Source of the DNA: a virus
Lineage: Duplodnaviria; Heunggongvirae; Uroviricota; Caudoviricetes
Virus record (IMG/VR): IMGVR_UViG_2778261421_000003
Location: 1 to 37,073 of that record
Direction: 5' to 3' (one strand)
Length of the DNA: 37,073 nt
Shown here: positions 825 to 33,010 of the stretch, piece after piece
Layout: each line of letters opens with the position of its first letter
How positions within the stretch are numbered: the stretch's first letter is position 1
Position numbers and translations under genes: made by a program
The notes under the pieces: model-generated
Told to the model about the DNA's origin: nothing
Seen by the model: the letters and a program-made list of their open reading frames with translations, nothing else
The model's database searches: none

Positions 825-1994
825 ATGGGAAAGAATAGTCAACGTAGGCGAGATAATAAAATTAAGCGAGAAAATGAGAAAAAAAGAAACTTAGCGGCAA
901 AGATAAATAAAATGTTGTATATAAAGCCTGATATATTTTTTGATGAATCAGGTAATACTGGCGGAAATTTACTCGATCCATTGCAACCTGTTTTTACCTT
1001 AAGTTCAAGTAGTATTAGTAAACAGGATGCGCTTAAGGCATTAGAACTAACCGGAAGCAAGTCTCCAACAGAAGCCCACTTTAAAACTCTTAGACGTAGA
1101 AAATCTGGTCAGGATGGCATCATTAGGCTTCTTGAAAGCAAATATGTCAATGAAGAGAATGTTAAAATATACTTGGTCGATAAAAAATACATGCTAACAG
1201 CAAAGATTGTTGATATTTTGATCGAGACGTGGTGCTCTAATAGAGGAATAGATCTTTATATAAATGGACAGAATCTAGCTCTGTCTAATGTTTACTATTT
1301 CTGTTTCCCTGCTTTCTGTGGGGAGGAAAAAACAGAGGTAATGTATCAGTGTTTTATGAATATGATCAGAAGCCAATCGACTGAGTCAATTGATGAATTT
1401 TACAGGGTAATTGATGAGTTAAAGATATGCTCAAGTGATAAGATATTCACAGATATAATAAACAGAATTAGTATTACCAGAAGCGATATTGATGATATAT
1501 TGGAAGGTGTTGAGAAAAGCACATTAGATCCATCTATACCAAGCCTCTTTAGACACTGTGTAGAATGGGGTAAATTATACCCTAATGGTTTTTATATTAA
1601 GCATGACGATTCCAAAGCTATTACAGAGAAGAAAGATATTTTTGATAAATTTATGGATATATCAAAAATTACGGAGGCATATGGTTATGATCGAAGAAAA
1701 TTTGAATTGCCAATTAAAGCTCGTTCTTTGACATTCCATTCATCACAAGAGTATCCTCAATTACAAATTGTAGATATAGTAGCAAGTGCGGCTGCTTATT
1801 ATGTTAACTGTCTAAAAAGAAATGACTTAGAAGATTATCTCTTTAAAGAACTTCAAAGAATAAAAATAGATAACTATTTTAAAAATATGGCCATTTGGCC
1901 TACAACATATGTTACACCTCAAGAATTAGGCACAATTTATACTGGTGGGCGAAACCCTGCAGATGGAGTCGCTGATTATCTTTCTCAATATTAG
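825..1994 (+). CDS. Hypothetical 389-aa protein with DUF3800-like motifs; candidate accessory or anti-phage defence protein
   Basis: Long ORF in a markedly AT-rich island between ogr and D, on the opposite strand to both. Near the N-terminus is YIKPDIFFDESGNTG, and near the C-terminus LQIVDIVASAAAYY, which match my recollection of the DUF3800 family motifs. Has its own promoter-like hexamers and RBS, and a downstream hairpin. Confidence 0.6.
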   Translation: MGKNSQRRRDNKIKRENEKKRNLAAKINKMLYIKPDIFFDESGNTGGNLLDPLQPVFTLSSSSISKQDALKALELTGSKSPTEAHFKTLRRRKSGQDGIIRLLESKYVNEENVKIYLVDKKYMLTAKIVDILIETWCSNRGIDLYINGQNLALSNVYYFCFPAFCGEEKTEVMYQCFMNMIRSQSTESIDEFYRVIDELKICSSDKIFTDIINRISITRSDIDDILEGVEKSTLDPSIPSLFRHCVEWGKLYPNGFYIKHDDSKAITEKKDIFDKFMDISKITEAYGYDRRKFELPIKARSLTFHSSQEYPQLQIVDIVASAAAYYVNCLKRNDLEDYLFKELQRIKIDNYFKNMAIWPTTYVTPQELGTIYTGGRNPADGVADYLSQY

Positions 1995-8938: not shown

Positions 8939-8945
8939 TTAACGC

Positions 8946-8975
8946 AAAACCGCTAATGGTCAGATTAGCGGTTTT
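8946..8975. terminator. Palindromic hairpin shared by the convergent U and invertase genes
   Basis: Perfect 12-bp stem AAAACCGCTAAT / ATTAGCGGTTTT with a 6-nt loop, followed by TTTTCATTTTCC. The invertase stop codon lies inside the stem. Confidence 0.5.
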
Positions 8976-9564
8976 CATTTTCCTGAGTCTGCCTGGTTGT
9001 TTCTTCAGCCTGTATATCGCCTACAGGGTGATAACGATAAATCGTCGATATGCCGATGTCGTAAATGATCGCCAGTTGTTTCCTGTCATGACCGTTTTTA
9101 ATCAGCCTCGCTATTTGCTCGTGTTGTTCTTTTGTCAACTTCGGGCGACGTCCGCCAATGCGTCCTTGTGCGCGTGCTGCTGCCAGCCCGGCCAGTGTAC
9201 GCTCTACAATTAATTCACGTTCCATTTCGGCTAAAGCCCCCATGACGTGAAAAAAGAAACGCCCCATGGGTGTTGACGTGTCAATGCTGTCCGTCAGACT
9301 ACGGAAATTAACACCTTTTTCCCGCAATTCCTCAATAAGCGTGATCAGGTGTTTCATACTTCTGCCCAGTCTGTCCAGCTTCCAGACAACCAGCGTATCT
9401 CCTTCTGATAGCGTTCTGAGCAGTTTTTTCAATCCCGGTCTGGTTGATTTCGTTCCGCTGATTTTATCTTCAAAAATCAGTTCACATCCTGCGCAGTTCA
9501 GTGCATTGCGTTGTAAATCCGTGTTCTGGTCGTTTGTTGACACACGAATATAGCCAATTTGCAT
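8965..9564 (-). CDS. pin: Serine DNA invertase of the Hin/Gin/Cin/Pin family
   Basis: True start is the ATG at 9562-9564 (MQIGYIRVSTNDQNTDLQ), giving the catalytic-serine motif of small serine recombinases and a C-terminal HTH (GISTIYRY). The upstream extension in the ORF track is rejected. Confidence 0.85.
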   Translation of the reverse strand: MQIGYIRVSTNDQNTDLQRNALNCAGCELIFEDKISGTKSTRPGLKKLLRTLSEGDTLVVWKLDRLGRSMKHLITLIEELREKGVNFRSLTDSIDTSTPMGRFFFHVMGALAEMERELIVERTLAGLAAARAQGRIGGRRPKLTKEQHEQIARLIKNGHDRKQLAIIYDIGISTIYRYHPVGDIQAEETTRQTQENENR

Positions 9565-9578
9565 AAAAAACATCCTCT

Positions 9579-10097
9579 TTGTTTCGTGAAAAATACAGAG
9601 TTGGTATAGGTAGGGATAAAAACGAAAACGTTGGTTTGGGGGAAGGCTCTGCATTGCCTGTTGGTGTACCGGTTCCGTGGCCCACCGCCACACCGCCAGA
9701 AGGCTGGTTAAAGTGCGACGGGCGCGCCTTTACAAAAGAACAATATCCTGTTCTGGCCAGAGCCTACCCGACCCTCCGTCTTCCCGATTTACGCGGTGAA
9801 TTTATTCGTGGCTGGGATGACGGACGTGGTGTGGATGCCGGGCGACAATTATTATCTTCACAGGGGGATGCAATAAGAAATATTGAGGGATTCGCAGATG
9901 GCGGGATCGGTATGTCTTTTGATGCAATCAGAGGGGCTTTTTACGATGCAGGAACACGATCAGCGAGAATGCCGAATAACACAACTACTATAGACAAAAC
10001 CGATGACCTTGGATTCGACGCCTCTCGTGTCGTGCCAACAGCTAATGAAAACCGTCCTCGTAATATTGCCTTTAATTATATCGTAAGGGCGGCATAA
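9579..10097 (+). CDS. Promoterless alternative tail-fibre C-terminal cassette 1 (inverted orientation)
   Basis: Encodes LGLGEGSALPVGVPVPWPTATPPEGWLKCDGRAFTKEQYPVLA ... NIAFNYIVRAA, sharing both its first 65 aa and its last 12 aa with the C-terminus of the minus-strand fibre gene H. The middle is divergent. Confidence 0.6.
   Translation: MFREKYRVGIGRDKNENVGLGEGSALPVGVPVPWPTATPPEGWLKCDGRAFTKEQYPVLARAYPTLRLPDLRGEFIRGWDDGRGVDAGRQLLSSQGDAIRNIEGFADGGIGMSFDAIRGAFYDAGTRSARMPNNTTTIDKTDDLGFDASRVVPTANENRPRNIAFNYIVRAA
9625..9830 (+). repeat. Conserved 5' cassette repeat containing crossover candidate A
   Basis: About 200 bp nearly identical to 10096-10310 and to the reverse complement of 11510-11721. 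Begins AAAACGTTGGTTTGGGGGAAGGCTC, which contains a GGTTT half-site like hix/gix sites. Confidence 0.6.
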
Positions 10098-10310
10098 AAA
10101 CGTTGGTTTGGGGGAAGGCTCGGCGCTGCCCGTTGGTGTACCTGTTCCGTGGCCCACTGCCACACCGCCAGCAGGCTGGTTAAAGTGCGACGGGCGCGCC
10201 TTTACAAAAGAACAATATCCTGTTCTGGCCAGAGTCTACCCGACCCTCCGTCTTCCCGATTTACGCGGTGAGTTTATCCGTGGATGGGACGACGGGCGCA
10301 AAGTTGATAC
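10096..10310 (+). repeat. Conserved 5' cassette repeat containing crossover candidate B
   Basis: Direct repeat of 9625-9830 and inverted repeat of 11510-11721. Confidence 0.6.
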
Positions 10311-10620
10311 AGGACGTAAGTTGCTGTCCGCACAAGGGGCAACGCTGTTAAGAACAGCAATGCTGGATTATTATAACCAGGACACTACGGGAACCTCGGG
10401 GATAGTCGGCATGGGATTCAACAATGAAGATTCCATTACAGACCTTCGTGAGGGCAGCTTTAAAATGCCGGACGGGACAACATTCAGCGATCCTGTCATA
10501 GCAATGTCAGACAATGGTATGCAGGCTACTATTCTGACCTCTATCAGAAGCGGGTATGCGAAGGGTATCACTGTCAGACCCCGTAGCATTGCACTTAATT
10601 ACATTGTGAGGGCAGTTTAA
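10108..10620 (+). CDS. Promoterless alternative tail-fibre C-terminal cassette 2 (inverted orientation)
   Basis: Same conserved head (GEGSALPVGVPVPWPTATPPAGWLKCDGRAFT) and tail (SIALNYIVRAV) with a different middle. Directly followed by a tail fibre assembly gene. Confidence 0.6.
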   Translation: MGEGSALPVGVPVPWPTATPPAGWLKCDGRAFTKEQYPVLARVYPTLRLPDLRGEFIRGWDDGRKVDTGRKLLSAQGATLLRTAMLDYYNQDTTGTSGIVGMGFNNEDSITDLREGSFKMPDGTTFSDPVIAMSDNGMQATILTSIRSGYAKGITVRPRSIALNYIVRAV

Positions 10621-11234
10621 TGAGTAACACTGCAGTTCTGGATGAAAACGGTATCGCCACTGTAGCGGGCGATATCACTGTATATCACTATGACGAGGAA
10701 ACCCGGGAATACACCTCATCCTCTGTGGAGTATCTCGCCCTTGGGGTGGGTACTCCGGCACATTCGTGCGCCGATGCACCGCCGGAGGCAATTTCGGGTT
10801 ACGTGGTTTGCCGGACTGCCACGCTGAACGGGTGGGAGCATGTGCCTGATCACCGCGGCGAGACGGTATACAGCACGGAGAACGGTAACCCCGTTCTGAT
10901 TACCCAACCGGGTGATTACCCGGCGGACACCACCACAAAACAGCCAGCCACGCCATGGGATACCTGGAACGGTGAGGCGTGGGTAACCGATACTGAACGG
11001 CAGCGAACCGCAGAACTGGAGGTTGCCAGACAGCAACGCCAGCAACGGGTGAAACAGGCGATGGCGTCCGTCGATCTTATCAACCTCAAACTGCGTGCTG
11101 GTCGCAGTCTGACACCAGAAGAAACGGCAAAACTGAACGCCGTGCTGGATTATATCGACGAGCTGAACGCACTGGATATCAGCACGGCACCTGAAATCAG
11201 CTGGCCGGAAGCGCCACTGGCACTTGCCAGTTGA
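10620..11234 (+). CDS. Tail fibre assembly chaperone (Tfa, P2 gpG-like)
   Basis: 204 aa; the C-terminal region (APEISWPEAPLA, ERQRTAELEVARQQRQQR) resembles P2 G and Tfa proteins. Co-oriented with cassette 2 and opposite to the current H gene. Confidence 0.7.
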   Translation: MSNTAVLDENGIATVAGDITVYHYDEETREYTSSSVEYLALGVGTPAHSCADAPPEAISGYVVCRTATLNGWEHVPDHRGETVYSTENGNPVLITQPGDYPADTTTKQPATPWDTWNGEAWVTDTERQRTAELEVARQQRQQRVKQAMASVDLINLKLRAGRSLTPEETAKLNAVLDYIDELNALDISTAPEISWPEAPLALAS

Positions 11235-11240
11235 ACGGTA

Positions 11241-12965
11241 TCACGCCGCCCTCACGATATAGTTAAACGCGATATTGCGGGGGCGGGTTATGTTAAAGAA
11301 TGCTCCGTTTAATTCGGCTTTTGCGCGACTGTTTGTTCCACCCAGTATTGCGTACCACAAATAATCGCTACGGTAATTCCCCGCAAACACCTTATCGCCG
11401 CCATAGTCAATATTATTTCCGTTACTCATGTACGAGATATCAAGCGCAGAATCGTTATCGTCATGACCGCCGACCAGTGTACCTTTCTGCCATGAAAGCA
11501 ACTTACGCCCCTCGTCAATCTTGCGCCCGTCGTCCCATCCACGGATAAACTCACCGCGTAAATCGGGAAGACGGAGGGTCGGGTAGACTCTGGCCAGAAC
11601 AGGATATTGTTCTTTGGTGAACGTAGCTCCGTTGCACTGTAACCAGCCTGCTGGCGGTGTGGCGGTGGGCCATGGAACCGGTACACCAACAGGCAATGCA
11701 GAGCCTTCCCCCAAACCAAGGTAATTGAGGACATCTTTTATACTGCCCTTAGCGATAATAGCGCGACCAATAGCTGTAAGGGTTGCCAGCGCTGCGCGGT
11801 CTGCTCCGGTAAAATAAGGCAACCGATCTGCTGCAGTGGCAAGTCCTGCCAGAGCAGTGAGCGTGGCATCTGCCGGTTGTTTTCCGTTTGCCAGATCGTA
11901 TGCATCCTTGACCGCTTTCGGTGTGGCGGCCAGTATTTCAGACGTGCTGTTGATGGCATTGCTCAGTTGTACGGTGCCTTTTGCCGTCAGCGAGGCAGCA
12001 GGCACTCCCGTTATCTGACTCCATGGGTGAGTGTGGCTGACGGGGGCCTTGCCGGCTGCAAGGTCGTATGCCGCCTTGACGGCCTTTGGTGTGGCGGCCA
12101 GCGTTTCAGACGTGCTGTTGATGTCACTGCTCAATTGTACGGTGCCTTTTGCCGTCAGCGAGGCAGCAGGGACTCCCGTTATCTGACTCCACGGATGAGT
12201 GTGGCTGACGGGGGCCTTGCCGGCTGCAAGGTCGTATGCCGCCTTGACGGCTTTTGGTGTGGCGGCCAGCGTTTCAGAGGTGCTGTTGGTGGCACTGCTC
12301 AGTTGTACGATCCCTTTACGGGTCGTTGTTGCATCCTGGGCTGTGTATTTTCCCCAGGCCAGATCATACGCGATTTTCACAGCCTTCGGCGTGGCAGCCT
12401 CAGTTTCTGATTGACTGTCCGTGGCACTGCTAAGTTGAACAAAGCCTTTTGCGGTCAGCGAGGCGTCCGGGTGACGTCGTGACTGCTCGTGCTCTGATAT
12501 TTTATCATCCACATATTTGCGGGTTGCCAGAACCACAGACGGGTCGATTTTCAGCGTGATGGCTTCGGTGTTCGTGACAACCAGAATCATGCGGATAGTC
12601 TGGGTGCGTCCACTGCCTTCCTGCAACTGCGGTTTGTACGTTTCCGGGCAGTTTGCCACCGCAATGAGTACACCTTTATCATCATAAAGACCAATCTCAC
12701 GGATCCAGAATCCTCCCTCGCTTTCAGGGATGATTTGCTCCGCAATAATCTGGCTCTGATTGTTAGGGTCAACACTCAGAAGATTCAGCGGTGCAATGCG
12801 TTTCTGGTTAATCAGTTTTGTTTGTGCAGGGTCTGGTGTTGGTAACACACCATTTGCATCACCAACGGCCATTTGCGTCAGATTCAGCTTACTGCCGAGC
12901 ATCGTCGCGTTAGCCAGTCGTGCCGCGCCCTGATTAGTCAGAATGGCGTAGTATTTCACTGTCAT
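11241..12965 (-). CDS. H: Tail fibre protein gpH with the currently expressed C-terminal cassette 3
   Basis: 574 aa; the N-terminus resembles P2 H, the middle has tandem repeats, and the C-terminal 135 aa carry the cassette head and the FNYIVRAA tail. Confidence 0.85.
   Translation of the reverse strand: MTVKYYAILTNQGAARLANATMLGSKLNLTQMAVGDANGVLPTPDPAQTKLINQKRIAPLNLLSVDPNNQSQIIAEQIIPESEGGFWIREIGLYDDKGVLIAVANCPETYKPQLQEGSGRTQTIRMILVVTNTEAITLKIDPSVVLATRKYVDDKISEHEQSRRHPDASLTAKGFVQLSSATDSQSETEAATPKAVKIAYDLAWGKYTAQDATTTRKGIVQLSSATNSTSETLAATPKAVKAAYDLAAGKAPVSHTHPWSQITGVPAASLTAKGTVQLSSDINSTSETLAATPKAVKAAYDLAAGKAPVSHTHPWSQITGVPAASLTAKGTVQLSNAINSTSEILAATPKAVKDAYDLANGKQPADATLTALAGLATAADRLPYFTGADRAALATLTAIGRAIIAKGSIKDVLNYLGLGEGSALPVGVPVPWPTATPPAGWLQCNGATFTKEQYPVLARVYPTLRLPDLRGEFIRGWDDGRKIDEGRKLLSWQKGTLVGGHDDNDSALDISYMSNGNNIDYGGDKVFAGNYRSDYLWYAILGGTNSRAKAELNGAFFNITRPRNIAFNYIVRAA
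11510..11721 (-). repeat. Conserved cassette repeat inside H containing crossover candidate C (inverted relative to A and B)
   Basis: Reverse complement of 11701-11721 is CCTTGGTTTGGGGGAAGGCTC, matching the starts of repeats A and B. Confidence 0.6.
11830..12420. repeat. Tandem 168-bp (56-aa) repeats in the H shaft
   Basis: Units starting about 12001 and 12170 are nearly identical (protein repeat ...TAKGTVQLSS.INSTSE.LAATPKAVKAAYDLAAGKAPVSHTHPWSQITGVPAAS); more diverged copies flank them. Confidence 0.7.
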
Positions 12966-13603
12966 GCGTTTACTCTCAGATTATCAATTAAATGAATGGC
13001 CGGGGCAGGGAAATAATCCCCTTCGACAATAATGGACTCCGGGGTGTAGGGATAAACCGTCAGGGCATCGCCGTGATAGCATCCCGTACCAACGAAAATC
13101 TTTCCGTTCACACTCAGGCTGATCGCCAGCCCCGTCAGATGGCGACTTACTGGTTTTGCATCCGCAATAAGGCGCTCAAGTTCCTGATACATTTCATCGG
13201 TGATGCCCTGATCAAGTACTCCGACAACAATGCGAAATGTCCCTGGCTCCTCATTGAGTTGCCACCACTCCTTTACTTCAATCAGGTAGCCGAGAGGCTC
13301 CACGGCTCTTCGCAGTGCGCTGATGGTCCCTTTGTGTCGGTGTATCAGCCATGCATCACGAATCACCTGTCGCTTTGTCTCTTCCGGCCAGTTGCGATCC
13401 CAGCGGTCAACGGAAAACGCCCAGGCGAGATAAGGCAGCAGATGCACCGGGCAGGTGTCCGGCGACCACAGCGTGTTGAGGTCTACCGGAATGTCTGTAA
13501 TGCGTGTTCCGACGGCTTCGGCACAACGCATGAAATTGCTGGCTGATGGTGGTAACAACGAATTACTCATTGCGTCCACCTTCGCTGATGGTGAATGACT
13601 CAC
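12962..13603 (-). CDS. I: Baseplate assembly protein gpI
   Basis: 213 aa directly upstream of H with overlapping stop/start; position and size fit P2 I. Confidence 0.7.
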   Translation of the reverse strand: MSHSPSAKVDAMSNSLLPPSASNFMRCAEAVGTRITDIPVDLNTLWSPDTCPVHLLPYLAWAFSVDRWDRNWPEETKRQVIRDAWLIHRHKGTISALRRAVEPLGYLIEVKEWWQLNEEPGTFRIVVGVLDQGITDEMYQELERLIADAKPVSRHLTGLAISLSVNGKIFVGTGCYHGDALTVYPYTPESIIVEGDYFPAPAIHLIDNLRVNA

Positions 13604-23353: not shown

Positions 23354-25105
23354 ATGATTCAGGATGCTTTTGTGCGCCAGCGTGCGCGGCAACTTTACTG
23401 GCAGGGTTATCCGCCCGCAGAAATATCACGTCTGATGGGAATAAACCCGAACACGATTTATGCGTGGAAAAAACGCGACCAGTGGGATGAAACGCCACCC
23501 GTGCAGCGTGTCACCCAGTCCATCGATGCGCGCCTCATCCAGCTTACTGAAAAACAGAATAAAACAGGCGGTGACTTTAAGGAAATAGACCTGCTGACCC
23601 GGCAGCTTAAAAAACTGCATGATGGCCAGCCGGATGCGACGGCCACAGGAAAGAAAGGCCGGGCGAAAAAACTCAAAAATCATTTCACGCCGGAACAGAT
23701 TGCCGCACTGCGGGAAAAAATCATCAGCAGGCTGGAGTGGCATCAGCGGGGCTGGTTTGACTCCCTGACCCTTTGCAGGGAAGCCGGGATACGTAACAGG
23801 ATGATCCTGAAATCCCGACAGATTGGGGCGACCTGGTATTTTGCTCAGGAAGCACTGCTGATGGCGCTGCGTGACGATGTGGCGCAACCTTACCAGCGTA
23901 ACCAGATTTTTTTGTCTGCGTCGCGTCGTCAGGCGTTCCAGTTTAAAAGCATTATTCAGGAGGCTGCATCTGAAGTTGATGTGGAGCTGAAAGGGGGCGA
24001 TAAAATCATCCTCTCCAACGGCGCAGAGCTGCATTTTCTTGGTACTTCTGCTGCGACGGCACAGTCCTACACGGGCAATTTTTATTTTGATGAATTTTTC
24101 TGGGTCAGTCGCTTTGCTGAACTGCGCAAGGTGGCTGGCGCTATGGCAACCCTCAGCGGACTGCGGCGCACCTACTTCTCCACGCCATCCACCGAAACGC
24201 ACGAGGCATACGCCTACTGGAACGGCGACCGCTGGAACGAGAAAAAGGCCTCGCATAAACGCCAGCGTTTTTCTGTGGACTGGAAAACGCTGCATAACGG
24301 GCTTATCTGCCCTGACCGGACGTGGCGGCAAATTGTCACGCTGGAAGATGTGGTTAATCACGGCTGGAAACACACCGATATTGATGAAATTCGTGATGAA
24401 AACACCGAAGACGAGTTCCTCAATCTCTATATGTGTGAGTTTGTCCGCGAAGGGGAATCGGCATTTAACCTGAATATCCTGATTGGCTGTGGTGTTGACG
24501 GATACGACGACTGGAAAGACTGGAAACCTTTTGCTCCCCGCCCGATGGGGAATCGTCCGGTATGGATTGGGTATGACGCAAACGGCAGCAGTGGAAACGG
24601 CGACAGCGGCGCTGTGTCCGTGGTGGTTCCTCCGGCTGTTCCTGGCGGCCGTTTTCGAACGGTGGAGACGCGACGCGTTCAGGGGCTGGAGTTTGAAGAA
24701 CAGGCCAGAGTCATTGAAGAGTTCACGTGTCGCTACAACGTGGAACACATCGGCATTGATGTGACAGGCGGGAACGGGGAGGCTGTTTATCAGATAGTGA
24801 AACGGTTTTTCCCTGCTGCTATTCCGTACACCTTCACGCTGTCATCAAAACGGTCGCTGGTACTGAAAATGCTGCAAATAATGCGTGCCGGGCGGTGGGA
24901 ATACGATCGCGCCGAACGCGAGCTGGTCGCAGCCTTTAACGCCGTGCGTAAGGTGAAAACACCGGGCGGCTTTATCACTTACGAAACGGACCGCGCGAGG
25001 GGGATCAGCCACGGCGACCTTGCGTGGGCAACCATGCTTGCTGTCATTAACGAACCAATTGGCGGCGAAGGAGAAAACGAGCGTTTCACGGTTATGGAGT
25101 TCTGA
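23354..25105 (+). CDS. P: Terminase ATPase (large) subunit gpP
   Basis: 583 aa (P2 P is about 590 aa), divergent from O and followed by Q. Confidence 0.85.
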   Translation: MIQDAFVRQRARQLYWQGYPPAEISRLMGINPNTIYAWKKRDQWDETPPVQRVTQSIDARLIQLTEKQNKTGGDFKEIDLLTRQLKKLHDGQPDATATGKKGRAKKLKNHFTPEQIAALREKIISRLEWHQRGWFDSLTLCREAGIRNRMILKSRQIGATWYFAQEALLMALRDDVAQPYQRNQIFLSASRRQAFQFKSIIQEAASEVDVELKGGDKIILSNGAELHFLGTSAATAQSYTGNFYFDEFFWVSRFAELRKVAGAMATLSGLRRTYFSTPSTETHEAYAYWNGDRWNEKKASHKRQRFSVDWKTLHNGLICPDRTWRQIVTLEDVVNHGWKHTDIDEIRDENTEDEFLNLYMCEFVREGESAFNLNILIGCGVDGYDDWKDWKPFAPRPMGNRPVWIGYDANGSSGNGDSGAVSVVVPPAVPGGRFRTVETRRVQGLEFEEQARVIEEFTCRYNVEHIGIDVTGGNGEAVYQIVKRFFPAAIPYTFTLSSKRSLVLKMLQIMRAGRWEYDRAERELVAAFNAVRKVKTPGGFITYETDRARGISHGDLAWATMLAVINEPIGGEGENERFTVMEF

Positions 25106-26151
25106 TGAGCAGAAAAAATAAAAAAGTGCGCATGAGTTCACGCATTGATCTCGCTGATGCGCTCAGGAAAGAATCATCGCTCAGTGCATTCACATTTGAT
25201 GGTCCTTATCGCCTGACCGGGCATGACCTGCTGGACAATATGTACTGTGCTGATAACGGGCGGTGGTATGAAACCCCGGTGGACTGGTACGGTCTGGCAA
25301 GAGCAGCCCGGCAAACGTCCTGGCATCAGTCTGCGCTTTACTTTAAGCGCAATGTATTACTCGGTTGCTACATCCCGCACCCGCTGCTTTCCCGGCAGGA
25401 TTTCTCGGCGCTGGCGCTGGACTGGTTTGTGTTCGGTAACGCATTCCTTGAGCTTCGAAGCAATATGCTCGGCGAACCGCTTAAATTACGGCACGCCCTG
25501 GCGAAATACATGCGACGCGGAAGCGATCTTGAATCATGGTGGTATGTGCAGGATGGCAAGGACGCGTTTCAGTTTCGTCCTGGCAAAGTGTGCCACCTGA
25601 TGAATCCGGATATTAACCAGGAAATCTACGGCATGCCGGAATATCTTGGCGCATTACTCTCGGCCAGCCTTTCTCATTCGGCGGACATGTTCAGAAAACT
25701 GTACTACGACAACGGATCCCACGCCGGGTGCATCATCTACATCGGTGCAGCGCAGGTAAACCGCGAAAGCATGGACTCCCTGAAAGAAACGCTACAGGGG
25801 GCACGTGGTGGTGGTGCGTTTAAAAACGTGCTCATTCATGCGCCCAACGGGGGCAAAGAGGGGGTGCAAATTTTGCCGTTCCAGCAGATCACCGCAAAAG
25901 ATGAATTCATGAATGTTAAGGCGGCATCCCGTGATGATGTGCTGGCTGCGCACCGCGTTCCGCCGCAACTGATGGGGGCGATGCCGGGCGAAAAAAGTGC
26001 GTTTGGCGATGTGGAGAAGGCAGCGCGGGTTTACGCAATTAACGAGCTGATGCCCGTCATGGAGGCTATGAAGCACATCAATGACTGGCTTGGCGAAGAG
26101 GTGATCCGTTTTAACTCTTATGCTCTTCTTGATGAAAAAACAGCCCCGTGA
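25105..26151 (+). CDS. Q: Portal protein gpQ
   Basis: 348 aa (P2 Q is about 344 aa), start overlapping the P stop. Confidence 0.85.
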   Translation: MSRKNKKVRMSSRIDLADALRKESSLSAFTFDGPYRLTGHDLLDNMYCADNGRWYETPVDWYGLARAARQTSWHQSALYFKRNVLLGCYIPHPLLSRQDFSALALDWFVFGNAFLELRSNMLGEPLKLRHALAKYMRRGSDLESWWYVQDGKDAFQFRPGKVCHLMNPDINQEIYGMPEYLGALLSASLSHSADMFRKLYYDNGSHAGCIIYIGAAQVNRESMDSLKETLQGARGGGAFKNVLIHAPNGGKEGVQILPFQQITAKDEFMNVKAASRDDVLAAHRVPPQLMGAMPGEKSAFGDVEKAARVYAINELMPVMEAMKHINDWLGEEVIRFNSYALLDEKTAP

Positions 26152-26168
26152 TGGGGCTGTCCTTTTTA
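26134..26168. terminator. Bidirectional rho-independent terminator at the Q stop
   Basis: ACAGCCCC-gtgat-GGGGCTGT with an A-run before and CCTTTTT after. The Q stop is in the loop and the stop of the convergent 174-aa gene abuts the T-run. Confidence 0.6.
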
Positions 26169-26690
26169 CCAGAGTTGAACCATTTTCTGGGTGCCGTCAG
26201 GCTTGAGATTATCAATTTCAGAGAGAACGTAATATTGAATGGCTTCACAAACGGTGGTGTAGGGTGAATTACCTTCTTTAAGTGGCACGATATTATTATT
26301 AACGCGAACCTGTATTTCATCGTTATACATTGCGATCGAAACAGGCGTGTGCACGAACGCGACTTCGCCAGGTGTGTCGTCAACCACCGTTTCAATACTA
26401 AAAGTCAGTTTTCGCTCATCATTGCTGCCCCATGCTTTGGGGGTAGCGGCAGGGATCTGGGATAAAGGCATTCTGCGAAATCCTTCGGCTGCTTCCAGTC
26501 CGCATGAAACGTAATGCTGGCGATTACCGTCGCTATCTGTCCAGGTCTGTGATGGCAGCTCCAGCGAGATTTCATAAGCATCAACAATGCCCTGGGCAAG
26601 GCGTACAAGCGGGGTCAGATCTTCATTGCGGCGAAAGCTCTCCTTTACCTGCTCCCGTTTTTCTCTTAACTGCTTGTAATTAATGACCAT
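26166..26690 (-). CDS. Hypothetical protein (174 aa), unrecognised cargo in the old/tin position
   Basis: Start chosen at MVINYKQL, preceded by GGAGG. No motif I can assign. GC is lower than the structural genes. Convergent with Q. Confidence 0.5.
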   Translation of the reverse strand: MVINYKQLREKREQVKESFRRNEDLTPLVRLAQGIVDAYEISLELPSQTWTDSDGNRQHYVSCGLEAAEGFRRMPLSQIPAATPKAWGSNDERKLTFSIETVVDDTPGEVAFVHTPVSIAMYNDEIQVRVNNNIVPLKEGNSPYTTVCEAIQYYVLSEIDNLKPDGTQKMVQLW

Positions 26691-27189
26691 AAGACAGCCT
26701 CCATTGATTTCTTTGCTCGTATTTTGCACTTATGAAGTATGGTCGGCAAGGTGCCGTATCGCTGACGCGCTTCGCTTGTCTGCTGCTTCGCCGGGGCATA
26801 AAAAATTTATGCCCCGGCTCTCCAGCTCCTGTATCAATCAGATAATTTCACGACGCCTTCCAGTTTATCGCCACCATCGACGGTCAGACTCTTACGCAAT
26901 TCCACCGCGTTGACTGTATGTTCTCGCTGCCTCAGTGCGATTTTGACGGCCTTACCTTTCACCCCATCAAATCAAAAGCCCTCACGCCTTTTTCATGCTC
27001 AGCGTGAGAAATACGGCCATTCTGTTGTGTCTCTGCGACATCGTTCAGGGAATGCTATTTACCCCCTGAAACGCGGGCTGTTCCCCCGTCACCTGCGCGC
27101 AGAAAAAACGCGTTTTTTTGTGCACGCACGGATCCCTGACGGATCCAGTCGCCACGCGGGCCGGAAGGGTAAAAAGTTGTTCAAAAAAA

Positions 27190-27227
27190 TTGTGCAAATT
27201 TGTGCACTATTGTGCGGTGTATAAAAT
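27190..27227 (+). promoter_or_regulatory. Three TTGTGC repeats at 10-bp spacing with a TATAAAAT box upstream of the antitoxin gene
   Basis: TTGTGC at 27190, 27200 and 27210, then TATAAAAT at 27220-27227. Could be a promoter with operator repeats for autoregulation. Confidence 0.35.
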
Positions 27228-27289
27228 GAAAATATGGCGGTGTTATTACTGCCCAACAAGCCGTTATACTTACGTTATGGGCGTGCATA

Positions 27290-27646
27290 ATGGAAATGAA
27301 TATGAAAACTGTAACTGATGATGAATTTCGTGAGAACCTGAGTGAAATTCTGGATTACCTTTCTTCCGGTGGCAGTGTCGTTATCACTGCGCAGGGAGGG
27401 AAGGATGTTGTTCTTGCTGGTTCTGATCTTAGTCCTGAAATACGGGCTGTCCTTGGCAAAACCAAAAAACTGCGGGATCAAATAAACAAAATGAAGCAAC
27501 CACTCTTAATAAATGCAGTGAGAGATCTGGAAAAACGTCATCCAGCTCTTGTCGCACAGAGAAAAAAAGGATTGTCTTTTGAAGATGCAATGAAGCGTAC
27601 AAGAGAAAAACATGCGGATATCATTAAAAAGCTTGAGGATAACTGA
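27290..27646 (+). CDS. Phd/YefM-like antitoxin (extended, about 118 aa)
   Basis: N-terminal region VTDDEFRENLSEILDYLSSGGSVVITAQGGKDVVLAG resembles Phd/YefM antitoxins. Stop overlaps the start of the Doc-like gene (TGATG). Alternative start at the ATG at 27302. Confidence 0.55.
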   Translation: MEMNMKTVTDDEFRENLSEILDYLSSGGSVVITAQGGKDVVLAGSDLSPEIRAVLGKTKKLRDQINKMKQPLLINAVRDLEKRHPALVAQRKKGLSFEDAMKRTREKHADIIKKLEDN

Positions 27647-28053
27647 TGGACATAGTGTTTTTGTCAAAAGAACAAGTAGAACGTATCCATGCTGAAACTT
27701 TACCCCAGAGCGGAAATGCCAATGACGGGCTACTTGAAGGTGCTTTAAATCGCGTCAGGACACTACACTACTATGAAGGGGTTGATGATATTCATGCTCT
27801 GGCTGCTATGTATTTGATTGGTATAGCCAAGGCTCATGCCTTTCATGATGGGAATAAACGCACAGCTTTTCAGGCTGCATCAATATTTTTAATGATGAAC
27901 TCTTCCGAACTTTCAAACTCCCTGCTGCTGGTTAAATTAACGGTGTTTTCAGCAATGGGGATAGCTACCCTTGAGGAAGTTACCTTTGCTTTGAAATTGC
28001 TGTCTGATTATGGCAATGAATTAATCAGCGACTACGAAGAAGATTATATTTAA
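27646..28053 (+). CDS. doc: Doc (Fic/Doc family) toxin
   Basis: 135 aa with HAFHDGNKRTAF, matching the Fic/Doc HxFx(D/N)GNKR catalytic motif. Translationally coupled to the upstream antitoxin. Confidence 0.75.
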   Translation: MDIVFLSKEQVERIHAETLPQSGNANDGLLEGALNRVRTLHYYEGVDDIHALAAMYLIGIAKAHAFHDGNKRTAFQAASIFLMMNSSELSNSLLLVKLTVFSAMGIATLEEVTFALKLLSDYGNELISDYEEDYI

Positions 28054-28314
28054 TGCTGGCATACTCTGTCGTGTTAAGACAACAGCCTTTGCGGAAACAG
28101 GGCAGGGTGCCAGACTTGCCCGCAGCGCGTCTGACATGAGCAGTTATTCATCTTTTTTATTGTTTTTCTCCATGCAGGGCGACAGTGCGTCCATGCCAGC
28201 TTGATGTTGGTGGAGCCGTCGTCGATACAAATTTTCATGTCGCTTTTCCTTATGTTGATTAATTAATCGGTTACAGGATTTTTAAATCCCGCTTTTGCCT
28301 GTTTTGTGCGCGCT

Positions 28315-31137
28315 TCATATATCGCTGCGCGTTTTTTGCTCATTTACGGGATTTGTGAGTCCCGTTTCTGTCTGTTTTTTGTTTCCACTGGTCAGGCCAC
28401 CCCGCAGCAGGTCTGCTTTGCGGCTGGCGCGTTCAGTGGTTTCACTGATTCTCTGTGCGTGCTCTGCGTCGCGGATGGCGCGCAGCATGTCAGAAAGCAC
28501 GGTAACGGGTGTTTTCATGGTGTTCTGGTCCTGCTGAAGTGTGGATGCCAGGCGTGCGGCGGCTTCAGGGTCTGATGCCCCCAGCTGTGCCAGATAGCTG
28601 GCGACCGGGTTATGGCGGATCTCCGTGCTGCTTACGCCATGATTACGGCTCAGGCGCTGCCAGAGCTGCGTGATTCGGCTGTCCAGGCGGGTATCCGGTT
28701 TGCGTACAATTTCAAATCCCTGCGGTGCAATGATGCTGCCGTCAACGTACAGACTGCCGCCCCGTAACAGGTGCTGCATCTGTTGTTCACCGATATGCAG
28801 GCCGAGAGATTCAGCAGACTCCCGCCATTCTTTAGCGAGTAATTCGTGGTTATCAGGCAAAGGCCGCTGCTGTTTGCGGCTCTGTGTCCAGCTCTGCGCT
28901 TCATCACTGCTGTTTTTTGCCTGTTTGTCACGAAGCGAACGCATCAGCGCCCGGCGTTCGTGCCGTTTCAGTGAGCGCATCCATTCGTTCACTTCAACGC
29001 CGTCAGGGAGCTGCGGCCACGGTGCTGGCCGTTCTTCCGGCTGTTCTGTCCCGTTGTTGTCCGTTTCCTGTACACGGGGACAGTTATTGCCACGAGTCCA
29101 AGGGGCGGCATGGCCGCCCTGAAGGTCAAAACCATTTTCGCGGGCGTTGTCTTCTGGTTCTGGTTTACGTCTTACCAACTTCCAGTTATCCGGATGCGTG
29201 CACACACGGGAGGATTCCCCGATGAGTGGTGACCAGATCCCGTAAATCTGTACGCTCTGTTCGCCGTAATCGTTCAGCTCATCTGCGAGGTCGTAGGCGG
29301 TGCGAATCAGGTAGTCCTTGCGTGGAACAAGCACGCCACCCTGTTTTTCAATGTAGGAGGCAAAACACCCGGCATCAGCGGCAGCGAGTACCGCATCCAT
29401 TGCATCATCCTTCAGCCGTTGCGGGCCTTCCGGGTTGCGTGCCATCTGGCTGGCAAGGCGGCGGAGTTCACGCCATACCTGACGGGAGGGGATGCCAAAG
29501 AACTGGAACTGGCGGACCCGATGAAGACGCGCCCAGCCAATGGCGCGCTCCACGCTCTCGGCCATTGATTTTCCGGTTTCGTGGTCAACGCGTGGCTTGC
29601 CCGTTTTCGGGTCGATGCCATCCACGGCGCGGCTGTCCAGGTTCTTTCCGATGTAGGTCGCGATATAGCTGGTTGGTGTGCCTTTTGAGCCGTCGACATA
29701 CTCCGCCTTAAAGCGCGGAGTAATATCATTGCCCAGCTCGTGGCGGTCTTCCTGAATGGCAATATCGCGGGTGATGGCCACGATGCTGTCGATTTCTTCC
29801 GGATGAGCAAAGACCATCATATGCCAGTGCACGGTGCCGTCATGGTGAGGCTCCACCGTGCGGATGCCATACCAGCGAAGACCGTCGCGGTTCAGTTTTT
29901 TGCGGACCGCCGCAAAAAACGTGTTAACCAGGTAATCGCTGGAGTCGCGCATGGTGGCCCCGTTCCATTTGGGATTCGGATGACCGTTCTCTGTTGTGGC
30001 GTGGTATTTTGACGGGCAGGTGACAGTCAGAAACACCGCTTTGTCGCCACGGGCTTCGGCCAGAAGTTCCAGCCCCTTCATGGTGGCCATCATTTCTGCC
30101 TTACGGTGAACCGGGTTACTTACTCCCGCGTAATACACTGTCTCGAGATCAATCGTGAACCCGTCTTCGTTTTCCAGCATGAAACTTTTCAGGAAATCGC
30201 GTGTTTTCTCGCGCTGTGCGCGAAACTCGCTTAACGCGTCCTGGCTCAGATAGGGTGATGTTTTTCTGGAAACCAGACAGGCGGCGCGGAGTTGTTCTTC
30301 TCTCCACTCGCAACGTAACAGCCACAGTTTGCGTTTCCACCATTCCGCACAGGTCAGGCGAAGGACTGCGCCCGGCAGCAGCTCCGTGTCCGGTTCGTTC
30401 CTCCGGTCTTTATCTGTTGTCAGTGCGTCATAATGTGGAGGCATGATGTGCAGGTGTAACGCCATGCGGGCCAGCATCTGATACGCCTTCAGCGTTACAT
30501 CCATGGTCAGCTCGCCATCTCTGGCACCAAAGCCATCACAGAGTTTTTCGAAGGTGCTGCTGAACATCGCCGCCGTCATGGTGGCCAGCGACTGTATCTG
30601 GTGTTTGTTGAGCTGCGGCAGGTAAAGCAAATCGTCCAGGCGTTCGCGTCCGGCAAGGGAGCGATAACCCGGTGTCAGCCAGTGTCCGTCAGTGCGATCC
30701 AGACGTTCGAATATTTTGCGCAGGGTTCCGCGTGCATAGCGTTCCGCCTGCCAGCTCTTTTTGCCTTTCCGGCGATCGGCTTCCTGTTTTTTGCGCAGGA
30801 AGGAGAGGTGGCGAATAAGCGGATCGCGCAGATAGGACGGCAGCAGGCGCAGCGAGGCCATGGCTTCATCCACCGCGCCACGTGCCTGTTTTCTGGCTTC
30901 TCTGGCCAGTGTGATGGTTTTGTCCTGTTTTTCCTGTGCGTCCAGGCTTTTATTAATCAGGTTGCCCAGCGGCGTGGCGGAGAACGCCGCATCAGCCATT
31001 TCCTGGCGGCGCTCGTTCTCTGCCCGGTAGGCATCCAGCCAGGAGGAAAGCTCGGATTCAGGAGCGGGGATTCCCGTTCCTTCACGACCCACTGCGTGGC
31101 GCGGTTGTTGCCAGTCCCTGATGTACTCTGCCGTCAT
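28315..31137 (-). CDS. A: Replication initiation endonuclease gpA (rolling-circle initiator)
   Basis: Motifs VTCPSKYHA and HWHMMVF are typical of P2/186 A-family proteins. The 940-aa ORF is longer than P2 A (761 aa), so the true start may be internal. Confidence 0.8.
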   Translation of the reverse strand: MTAEYIRDWQQPRHAVGREGTGIPAPESELSSWLDAYRAENERRQEMADAAFSATPLGNLINKSLDAQEKQDKTITLAREARKQARGAVDEAMASLRLLPSYLRDPLIRHLSFLRKKQEADRRKGKKSWQAERYARGTLRKIFERLDRTDGHWLTPGYRSLAGRERLDDLLYLPQLNKHQIQSLATMTAAMFSSTFEKLCDGFGARDGELTMDVTLKAYQMLARMALHLHIMPPHYDALTTDKDRRNEPDTELLPGAVLRLTCAEWWKRKLWLLRCEWREEQLRAACLVSRKTSPYLSQDALSEFRAQREKTRDFLKSFMLENEDGFTIDLETVYYAGVSNPVHRKAEMMATMKGLELLAEARGDKAVFLTVTCPSKYHATTENGHPNPKWNGATMRDSSDYLVNTFFAAVRKKLNRDGLRWYGIRTVEPHHDGTVHWHMMVFAHPEEIDSIVAITRDIAIQEDRHELGNDITPRFKAEYVDGSKGTPTSYIATYIGKNLDSRAVDGIDPKTGKPRVDHETGKSMAESVERAIGWARLHRVRQFQFFGIPSRQVWRELRRLASQMARNPEGPQRLKDDAMDAVLAAADAGCFASYIEKQGGVLVPRKDYLIRTAYDLADELNDYGEQSVQIYGIWSPLIGESSRVCTHPDNWKLVRRKPEPEDNARENGFDLQGGHAAPWTRGNNCPRVQETDNNGTEQPEERPAPWPQLPDGVEVNEWMRSLKRHERRALMRSLRDKQAKNSSDEAQSWTQSRKQQRPLPDNHELLAKEWRESAESLGLHIGEQQMQHLLRGGSLYVDGSIIAPQGFEIVRKPDTRLDSRITQLWQRLSRNHGVSSTEIRHNPVASYLAQLGASDPEAAARLASTLQQDQNTMKTPVTVLSDMLRAIRDAEHAQRISETTERASRKADLLRGGLTSGNKKQTETGLTNPVNEQKTRSDI

Positions 31138-31812: not shown

Positions 31813-31991
31813 GATGTGGCCTCTCTGTTAGTTAGTTTTGAAAACTCACCATCCAGAGGTTCCAAGCTCGGGGTGGTGAGACGTACAGGGTTGGAACTAC
31901 CGGCTAACAGAGGACCCGGCCCAGCTGATGCTGGCCCTGTACGCCCCACCATAATTCTGACGCGAAAAAGACGTGGCGATACGGCACGCAC

Positions 31992-32011
31992 AAAAAAACC
32001 GCTGGCGCGGT
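31992..32011 (-). terminator. Candidate rho-independent terminator on the minus strand
   Basis: Short GC stem ACCGC/GCGGT (31998-32011); the minus-strand transcript would be followed by seven U (complement of the A-run at 31992-31998). The stem is only 5 bp. Confidence 0.3.
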
Positions 32012-32179
32012 TGTGCGCTCTGTTAGTCTGCGGGGTTCCAATCCCGGCACCCGTTTTATGAGGTGCAGCGGAAATGTAACCTGACTGATTGCGGCATGGC
32101 AAGCGGTTTTTTTGTGAGAACGGCATACTAAAAAATCCTGATACTGCTCCGGCCAGCGGTTTTCACTGGCCGGGTTTAA

Positions 32180-33010
32180 TTACTTCACCGGAACAAACGG
32201 AACAGCGGTGTTACTGGTCATGTATTGCGGTAGCGTGCCGTTCCATTTGTTAATCGCTTCCAGCTCCATAACGCCGGGATTCTGGCGCAGAGCTTCACCG
32301 CGTAAACGAATGGCGTCGGCTTCAGCCTGGGCTTTTGTGCGAATGGCATCGGCTTGTCCGGCAGCTTCTGCGCGCAGCATGTTGGCTTCAGCTTCGCGTT
32401 GCTTGACTTCCTGTTCACGTTGCAGGGTTTTCTGGTTTGCCGTGACTTTGGCATTAATGCTGTCGATAACGGTTGGCGGGTATTCCGGCTTACCCACATA
32501 AGAGAGGCTCATTACCTGAATGCCGATAGGTGTCATTTCTGCCTGAATGTCTTTAAGTGCTGAATCCAGCAGTTCAGACTTGCCACCGTCGATAAATTTA
32601 TCGGTGGTCATTTTGCTGGCCAGTCGGTTGAGTGCGTCGGCGATCTTCTGGCGCAGGTCAGTGTCGGTAATGTCATCCACGCCTTTGCGGTAGGTCTGAA
32701 ACACTGTAGTAACTTTGGATGGATCAACCTTGTAGGCCACACCGATGTGATAGCCGATGGTTGTGCCGTCACTCATCTGAAAGCTGAACGGCTCATCGTA
32801 GGTCTTCATTTGTTTGAAGGTCGGGAAGATGTAAACCTCGGTATTCCAGCCAGTCCAGTAGCGGCCAACGCCAACCACTTCGCCAACGCCTTTGTCGTCG
32901 CCCAGCTTGTTGACTTTGATGCCCACATTACCTGGCTCAACGCGATCGCAGCCAACCAGCAGGATGGCGGCAAAAAGCGGGAGAATCTGAAAGAGTTTGA
33001 ATTTCTTCAT
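32180..33010 (-). CDS. SPFH/band-7 (stomatin/prohibitin-like) domain lipoprotein
   Basis: 276 aa with lipobox LLVGCD, a central SPFH-like region and a C-terminal Ala/Glu/Arg-rich coiled coil (QREQEVKQREAEANMLRAEAAGQADAIRTKAQAEADAIRLRGEAL). Confidence 0.65.
   Translation of the reverse strand: MKKFKLFQILPLFAAILLVGCDRVEPGNVGIKVNKLGDDKGVGEVVGVGRYWTGWNTEVYIFPTFKQMKTYDEPFSFQMSDGTTIGYHIGVAYKVDPSKVTTVFQTYRKGVDDITDTDLRQKIADALNRLASKMTTDKFIDGGKSELLDSALKDIQAEMTPIGIQVMSLSYVGKPEYPPTVIDSINAKVTANQKTLQREQEVKQREAEANMLRAEAAGQADAIRTKAQAEADAIRLRGEALRQNPGVMELEAINKWNGTLPQYMTSNTAVPFVPVK

Follow-up and report, generated by a model that had tools for sequence, protein, structure and literature searches.

Positions 27290-28053 of a 37,073-nt stretch of viral DNA (IMG/VR record IMGVR_UViG_2778261421_000003; the whole stretch is called the window below, and all coordinates are positions in it) hold a two-gene cassette that encodes an antitoxin and a Doc toxin within a P2-like prophage of E. 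coli. The pair is very probably a functional type II toxin-antitoxin (TA) operon of the Phd/Doc family with a P1-like mechanism, a judgement that covers identity and mechanism jointly and not the biological role. Both proteins carry names in RefSeq/PGAP: WP_001561011.1 is a “type II toxin-antitoxin system Phd/YefM family antitoxin” and WP_001561009.1 a “death-on-curing family toxin”. The antitoxin is also listed in the P2-hotspot Table S5A of Rousset et al. (2022), in the arrangement PhdYeFM + StbA + Plasmid_stab_B + zf-C4_ClpX + Fic. The pair is therefore already annotated and catalogued, and is an ordinary Phd/Doc-family member of an uncharacterised Enterobacterales subfamily, one with a 135-aa acidic-tailed toxin and an antitoxin of ~114 aa with a variable insert; this adds little beyond annotation.

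A sequence-only reading of the window had described a 135-aa product with the Fic/Doc catalytic motif, a preceding open reading frame (ORF) with a YefM/Phd-like N-terminal domain, and a stop codon of the latter that overlaps the doc start, and all three descriptions hold. Two co-oriented ORFs lie on the + strand, at 27290-27646 (118 aa) and 27646-28053 (135 aa). The antitoxin stop TGA (27644-27646) and the ATG of doc (27646-27648) have one base in common, giving TGATG (gap -1). The antitoxin probably starts at ATG 27302 (MKTVTD..., 114 aa) rather than at 27290, because invariance across 16 homologues begins at that Met and because PGAP uses the same codon; residue numbers of the antitoxin refer to this 114-aa form. 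The layout is that of a type II TA operon: the genes are small and co-oriented, the antitoxin comes first, the two overlap, and they are kept together in unrelated contexts. A small ORF stands upstream of Doc at 78 of 80 fetched loci, and at most of them it abuts or overlaps the toxin start.

Sequence profiles and a structure model agree that the toxin is a Doc-type Fic-fold protein. It scores 44.2 bits against Pfam Fic (PF02661; cutoff 24, E 3.5e-11) and 53.6 bits against NCBIfam TIGR01550 (DOC_P1; cutoff 38.65), and it matches PHROG 577, “Doc-like toxin”, at 2.9e-26. P1 Doc entries are the only significant sequence matches among solved structures (E 6e-13 for PDB code 3k33). Alignment to P1 Phd/Doc, which the sequence-only reading had suggested as a check, gives 35% identity over 103 residues for the toxin, with the Doc motif, and matches the antitoxin N-domain to the Phd profile. 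The catalytic motif HAFHDGNKRTAF occupies toxin residues 64-75 and aligns with P1 Doc column for column (H64-A-F-H-D68-G-N70-K71-R72, with H64, D68, N70, K71 and R72 corresponding to P1 Doc H66, D70, N72, K73 and R74). Across 30 homologues, the most distant at 31% identity, its H, F, D, N, K, R, T and A do not vary. The AlphaFold2 (AF2) model of the toxin is all-helical with seven helices (predicted local distance difference test, pLDDT, 84.6). In a Foldseek search with this model, P1 Doc chains rank 1-13, the best at a TM score of 0.80-0.88 and a root-mean-square deviation (RMSD) of 1.6-1.7 Å.

The motif bears on the chemistry of the toxin. Fic-fold toxins are diverse in chemistry and targets (review PMC7180214), and this one might be a conventional Fic AMP-transferase or act on a target other than EF-Tu, topoisomerase for example. 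An acidic, tyrosine-rich C-terminal tail (LLSDYxNxL...DY; LLSDYGNELISDYEEDYI; residues 120-135, 28003-28050) is conserved in the toxin subfamily and absent from P1 Doc, and could alter substrate choice; it is modelled with low confidence and predicted to be disordered. However, Lys71 replaces the second Gly of the Fic motif HxFx(D/E)GNGRxxR, at the position where a lysine sets kinase Doc apart from AMPylating Fic enzymes and inverts ATP (P1 Doc K73; review PMC7180214). In sequence and in structure alike, the top matches are P1 Doc without exception, and AMPylating Fic proteins are found by Foldseek only at E > 0.02. We thus regard a different chemistry or target as very unlikely. The Fic inhibitory motif (S/T)xxxE(G/N) was absent, on inspection, from both toxin and antitoxin.

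The N-terminal domain of the antitoxin is of the Phd/YefM-type DNA-binding and dimerisation fold, as judged from profiles and from its predicted structure. Pfam PhdYeFM (PF02604) matches at E 7.8e-07 over the first 39 of 74 profile positions, and a precomputed match to the same family is present on several close antitoxin homologues. An hhalign comparison of the antitoxin family profile with one built from P1 Phd and Phd-like proteins of 73 aa assigns a probability of 96.5% (E 8.7e-10, 41 columns). The AF2 model (pLDDT 73 overall, 74-87 in the N-domain) has the order β1-α1-β2-β3, and its top Foldseek matches are P1 Phd (4zlx, RMSD 0.8 Å over 39 columns; 3hs2) and YefM (2a6q). At the sequence level the likeness to Phd/YefM is limited to residues ~1-41.

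The sequence-only reading had also remarked that the antitoxin is longer than P1 Phd, so that its neutralising C-terminal region may differ. The first part stands, at 114 against 73 aa; the second probably does not, since the extra length lies in the middle of the protein and the last 24 residues (LSFEDAMKRTREKHADIIKKLEDN) are near-invariant and its best conserved part. The middle (residues ~45-90) is helical and hypervariable, with an insert of ~40 aa that explains the extra length, and in the wider family this segment ranges from almost nothing to ~90 residues. The last 24 residues are predicted by AF2, at low confidence, as one helix.

The end of this C-terminal segment resembles that of other antitoxins linked to Doc. 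The ORF directly upstream of Doc homologues was extracted at 80 loci in a scan of a genome collection, which yielded 78 distinct C-termini. A tail of the form hydrophobic-x-x-L-x(1-2)-(D/N/K/E)-(K/R) ends 75 of these 78, compared with 4.5% of 2,515 other ORFs taken from these loci as controls. The motif is independent of the N-terminal part, which can be Phd-like, seemingly unrelated to Phd, or absent. Experiments on another Doc antitoxin have demonstrated a transferable C-terminal “Phd-C” element that neutralises Doc (Ernits et al. 2023, PMC10440598). Because the tail is common to nearly all Doc-linked antitoxins and rare in the controls, the neutralising element of the window antitoxin is probably of the Phd-C kind, nothing new in principle, and its conserved C-terminal helix probably binds Doc. 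The family of long antitoxins is small, with 35 cluster representatives (E <= 1e-3) in 1.84 billion proteins, ~25 of which match end to end.

In Xenorhabdus spp., a 56-57-aa ORF without a Phd N-domain stands upstream of a 57-58%-identical Doc. It is hardly more than the conserved C-terminal motif (...AFRKALLxTQxKYADIIKALEDK) and may be a neutraliser-only antitoxin.

Two points weigh against a P1-like system. The antitoxin falls just under the curated cutoffs of its families (29.2 against 29.8 bits for PF02604, 16.6 against 20.8 for TIGR01552), and a profile comparison of its C-terminus with P1-Phd-like C-termini gives only weak similarity (P = 0.003 over 13 residues).

By analogy with P1, the operon would work as follows. 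Free toxin would phosphorylate EF-Tu, at Thr382 in E. coli, and this kinase activity would arrest translation. The C-terminal helix of the antitoxin (residues ~91-114) would fold onto the active-site groove of Doc and neutralise it, and the dimeric N-domain would repress the operon's own promoter. The antitoxin would be the more labile partner, such that loss of expression would free Doc.

The cassette is rare and uniform: of 5,426 complete E. coli genomes, 20 carry it; these come from varied hosts, and the copies are at least 99.7% identical. It is present in no phage genome record of the collection searched, where the best protein matches are Doc genes of 32-50% identity. Related pairs with a toxin 81-89% identical occupy the interval between portal gene and gpA in prophages of Serratia, Enterobacter hormaechei and Citrobacter youngae. 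A 58%-identical pair adjoins the tape-measure gene of an unrelated siphovirus-type prophage of Klebsiella, and in Enterobacter a 60%-identical pair occupies a chromosomal site that belongs to no prophage or island. A plasmid origin of the cassette was considered and rejected: no PLSDB plasmid carries it, and the matches are confined to the parM/gpA backbone and to a 73%-identical doc fragment from Arsenophonus.

The window amounts to a single integrated P2-like prophage of E. coli (Peduoviridae, P88/Xuanwuvirus type), with integrase, early region, gpA, capsid and tail modules, and ogr. The pair had been placed within a prophage cargo locus, and it does lie in the interval bounded by the portal gene (25105-26151) and gpA (28315-31137, minus strand), the gene of the replication endonuclease. 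Directly to the left of the pair is a conserved backbone segment (26758-27215) common to P2-like elements in 1,439 E. coli genomes, which presumably carries cos. The P2 cos 19-mer has no match in the window, and the sole positional hint for cos is a linear P88-like record that ends at the equivalent of ~27171. The GC content of the cassette is 39-44%, compared with 52-62% in the flanks, which argues for a foreign origin: the cassette was probably acquired as a low-GC unit in the cos-proximal hotspot between portal gene and gpA. Between the portal gene and the conserved segment, a 174/187-aa protein of PHROG 5091 is encoded at 26166-26729 (minus strand); it has no Pfam or PADLOC match and is found in some P2-like phages and not others, independently of the TA pair.

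Similarity to P2-like backbones that lack a TA pair stops at 27215, which sets the left border of the cassette at 27215/27216. To the right of this border, a weak candidate promoter consists of a -35 TTATTA (27243-27248), a 16-nt spacer and a -10 TATACT (27265-27270), and three GTTAT boxes begin at 27242, 27263 and 27274. Promoter and boxes (27242-27278) are conserved only in the TA-bearing loci, and the blocks GTGTTATTA and CGTTATACTTACG solely in the four such loci of the alignment. The GTTAT boxes could be the TA operator. A scan for consensus promoters and terminators returned nothing convincing for the operon.

Three TTGTGCA boxes with ~10-bp spacing lie at the other side of the border. 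The first and third are invariant across six P2-like loci, and only the Serratia locus has a changed middle box. They were ruled out as a TA operator: they belong to the backbone and are present in P2-like loci with an unrelated Phd/Doc pair or with no TA at all. Candidate functions are a backbone promoter, an accessory site for terminase or cos, or a recombination anchor for the exchange of cargo.

To the right of the pair, the window has lost genes that other loci retain. In the two undeleted E. coli loci that were examined, the order is portal gene, (hypothetical gene), backbone segment, then phd-doc, which is on the + strand, followed on the minus strand by a ClpX-type zinc-finger gene, a parR-like gene, parM and gpA. 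The window has a deletion of ~1.65 kb that removed the zinc-finger gene, the parR-like gene and all but 17 codons of parM. At the junction, 28189-28192, there are 4 bp of microhomology: as far as 28192 the window corresponds to one of the undeleted loci (L004), where this match ends at 6093, and from 28189 onward it corresponds to that locus from 7746. The deletion is carried by the window and 2 of the 20 cassette-bearing genomes; in the other 18 the match ends at one point, ~28190 of the window, with no sign of the deletion junction. What is left of parM (Table 1) matches Pfam StbA_N at residues 1-27, aligns with intact ParM over 17 residues by tblastn, and is named “ParM domain-containing protein” by PGAP. 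The window is thus an example of how hotspot cargo is assembled and eroded, in which a TA pair entered next to a partition module and the module was subsequently lost.

The zinc-finger gene was considered as a third TA component that modulates degradation of the antitoxin by ClpXP, and this was ruled out by its absence from the Serratia, Enterobacter and Citrobacter versions of the locus. In the table of Rousset et al. it occurs 43 times, compared with ~10 for the TA pair, and accompanies StbA/Plasmid_stab_B; it is part of the par module and not of the TA.

Table 1 Features of the cassette and its immediate surroundings in the window.
Feature	Position	Strand	Remarks
Three TTGTGCA boxes	27190-27216		Phage backbone, directly left of the cargo junction
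Cassette-specific 5' region of the antitoxin gene	27216-27301	+	Candidate promoter and operator
Antitoxin gene	27302-27646 (114 aa; alternative ATG 27290, 118 aa)	+	WP_001561011.1
Toxin gene	27646-28053 (135 aa)	+	Doc subfamily, Fic fold; WP_001561009.1
3' flank of the cassette	28054-28192		Runs to the deletion junction 28189-28192
parM remnant (54 codons)	28074-28238	-	First 17 codons true ParM, the rest read-through past the junction

A deletion that destroyed the adjacent par module, together with the rarity of the cassette, could be taken to mean that the pair itself is an inert remnant, decaying in an eroding cargo locus. The state of the genes makes this hardly credible. Neither ORF is truncated, the catalytic motif of the toxin is intact, and near-identity is kept across genomes from varied hosts. 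Between genera, comparison with the Enterobacter, Citrobacter and Serratia copies shows saturated synonymous sites (dS) together with low nonsynonymous divergence (dN; toxin 0.075-0.13, antitoxin 0.26-0.33); dN/dS, where computable, comes to 0.044 (toxin) and 0.10-0.16 (antitoxin). These comparisons of coding sequence indicate that both genes are under purifying selection.

If the operon is functional, its main role may be the selfish retention of the cassette and the prophage, a reading for which we see about an even chance. A daughter cell that lost the prophage would undergo post-segregational growth arrest, following the partition-plus-addiction logic of P1. We favour this role because a ParM/ParR module adjoins the cassette in two intact E. 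coli loci, as in the P1 design; the TA in the window would then be what remains of a maintenance block after the par deletion. Roughly one in four P2-like phages has a partition system, which may allow maintenance as a plasmid (Rousset et al. 2022). If the pair does stabilise the prophage, the logic of P1 extends to P2-like phages. Three observations speak against retention: all 23 cassette copies in complete E. coli genomes are chromosomal; the neighbours of the pair in other genera are not a partition module (in Serratia they are HicAB and a putative methyltransferase); and the locus is a documented hotspot for anti-phage systems.

The last of these observations leads to abortive infection as the main role, which we consider possible though on the whole unlikely. 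A competing phage that shuts off host transcription, or that degrades or sequesters the antitoxin, would free Doc; translation would then cease before the intruder had finished its cycle, and the lysogen population would be protected. The interval that holds portal gene, cos and gpA is a demonstrated reservoir of defence systems, among them old, tin and retrons (Rousset et al. 2022; Vassallo et al. 2022). Doc pairs have been captured by prophages repeatedly, as the Klebsiella pair and another Phd/Doc pair, in the corresponding interval of a Pantoea prophage, illustrate; the hypervariable middle of the antitoxin might be what is expected of a surface under conflict; and there are weak PADLOC matches to the candidate defence proteins PDC-S23 (E 7e-06) and PDC-M59B. 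However, some cargo of the hotspot has nothing to do with defence, cytolethal distending toxin and partition systems for example (Rousset et al. 2022), and homologues of the pair exist on Enterobacter chromosomes outside any prophage or island. The pair matches no validated defence-system model of PADLOC-DB, Rousset et al. list the arrangement and report no test of it, and the papers retrieved by full-text literature searches contained no Phd/Doc pair tested or shown for phage defence. Were the pair to block phages, the EF-Tu kinase Doc would join the effectors of abortive infection.

A more specific version of Doc-based abortive infection, which we hold to be doubtful, assigns the antitoxin insert the part of a release surface on which an invading phage (or host shut-off) would act to free the EF-Tu kinase. 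If true, this would be the first Phd/Doc pair shown in phage defence.

The Pantoea pair deserves separate mention. A P2-like prophage of Pantoea stewartii ATCC 8199 has, between portal gene and gpA (L034, 5654-6315), a short Phd with the 73-aa core followed by a 119-aa Doc that is 43% identical to the window toxin. The P2-like hotspot seems to have acquired this Doc module in a separate event.

Several features elsewhere in the prophage are recorded here. P2-like phages have a second defence-enriched hotspot, the locus that holds fun in P2 (Vassallo et al. 2022). At 825-1994 (+ strand), a 389-aa DUF3800 protein (PHROG 12991, function unassigned) adjoins gpD, and the segment 656-2062 is unmatched in strain 300444, where the prophage has gpD next to a DUF2971 gene; the variable segment may be the equivalent of the fun-locus hotspot. 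A serine recombinase gene (Resolvase + HTH_7; 8965-9693, minus strand) stands beside the tail-fibre region, and the window diverges from strain 300444 at 8945-13279; the region may be a Cin/Gin-type invertible tail-fibre segment. The early region contains a C4 antisense RNA (31869-31956, minus strand; 78.5 bits) and beside it the Hfq-binding small RNA isrK (31992-32066, minus strand; 72.4 bits), both at the Rfam gathering level; in strain 300444 the C4/isrK region adjoins an “ash family” pseudogene. Also in the early region, a 276-aa SPFH/Band 7 domain protein without a PADLOC match is encoded at 32180-33010 (minus strand).

Among known systems, old/tin and the other cargo of the P2 gpQ-gpA hotspot (Rousset et al. 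2022) share with the window pair their cos-adjacent genomic position. They have no kinship with it in sequence or mechanism, and no defence phenotype is reported for the PhdYeFM...Fic arrangement.

The PanA(Phd-C)/Doc system of Corynebacterium doosanense (PMC10440598) differs in its N-terminal domain, which is Panacea and not Phd/YefM. It is alike in that a short, transferable C-terminal helical element on an otherwise unrelated domain neutralises Doc, a likeness of pattern and not one of sequence comparison.

Closer in family and operon layout are the Enterobacterales pairs of a 73-aa Phd and a 119-132-aa Doc, found in Salmonella, Kluyvera and the P. stewartii locus above, the last also in a P2-like hotspot. 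Their toxins are 33-45% identical to that of the window and their antitoxins lack the middle insert, which places them in a separate subfamily, yet their antitoxin tail, ...H-x-x-x-I-x-x-L-x-D-K/R, fits the KHADIIKKLEDN of the window antitoxin.

P1 Phd/Doc (PDB codes 3K33, 3DD7 and 3KH2) differs from the window pair in several respects. The window antitoxin, at 114 aa compared with 73 in P1, carries ~40 aa of poorly conserved helices before its C-terminal helix, and its C-terminus (FEDAMKRTREKHADIIKKLEDN) has only a weak likeness, over the last 13 residues, to that of P1 Phd (AEFASLFDTLDSTNKELVNR). The window toxin has an additional acidic tail of ~15 aa. P1 is a plasmid prophage, whereas the host of the window pair is an integrated P2-like prophage, and the partition genes near pairs of the window type are of the ParM/ParR type rather than ParA/ParB. 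The two systems are nevertheless alike in the order of antitoxin and toxin, the one-base overlap of the genes, the H-x-F-x-D-x-N-K-R motif, the Doc fold and the Phd N-domain, and both are carried by temperate phages, with a partition module also present in loci related to that of the window pair.

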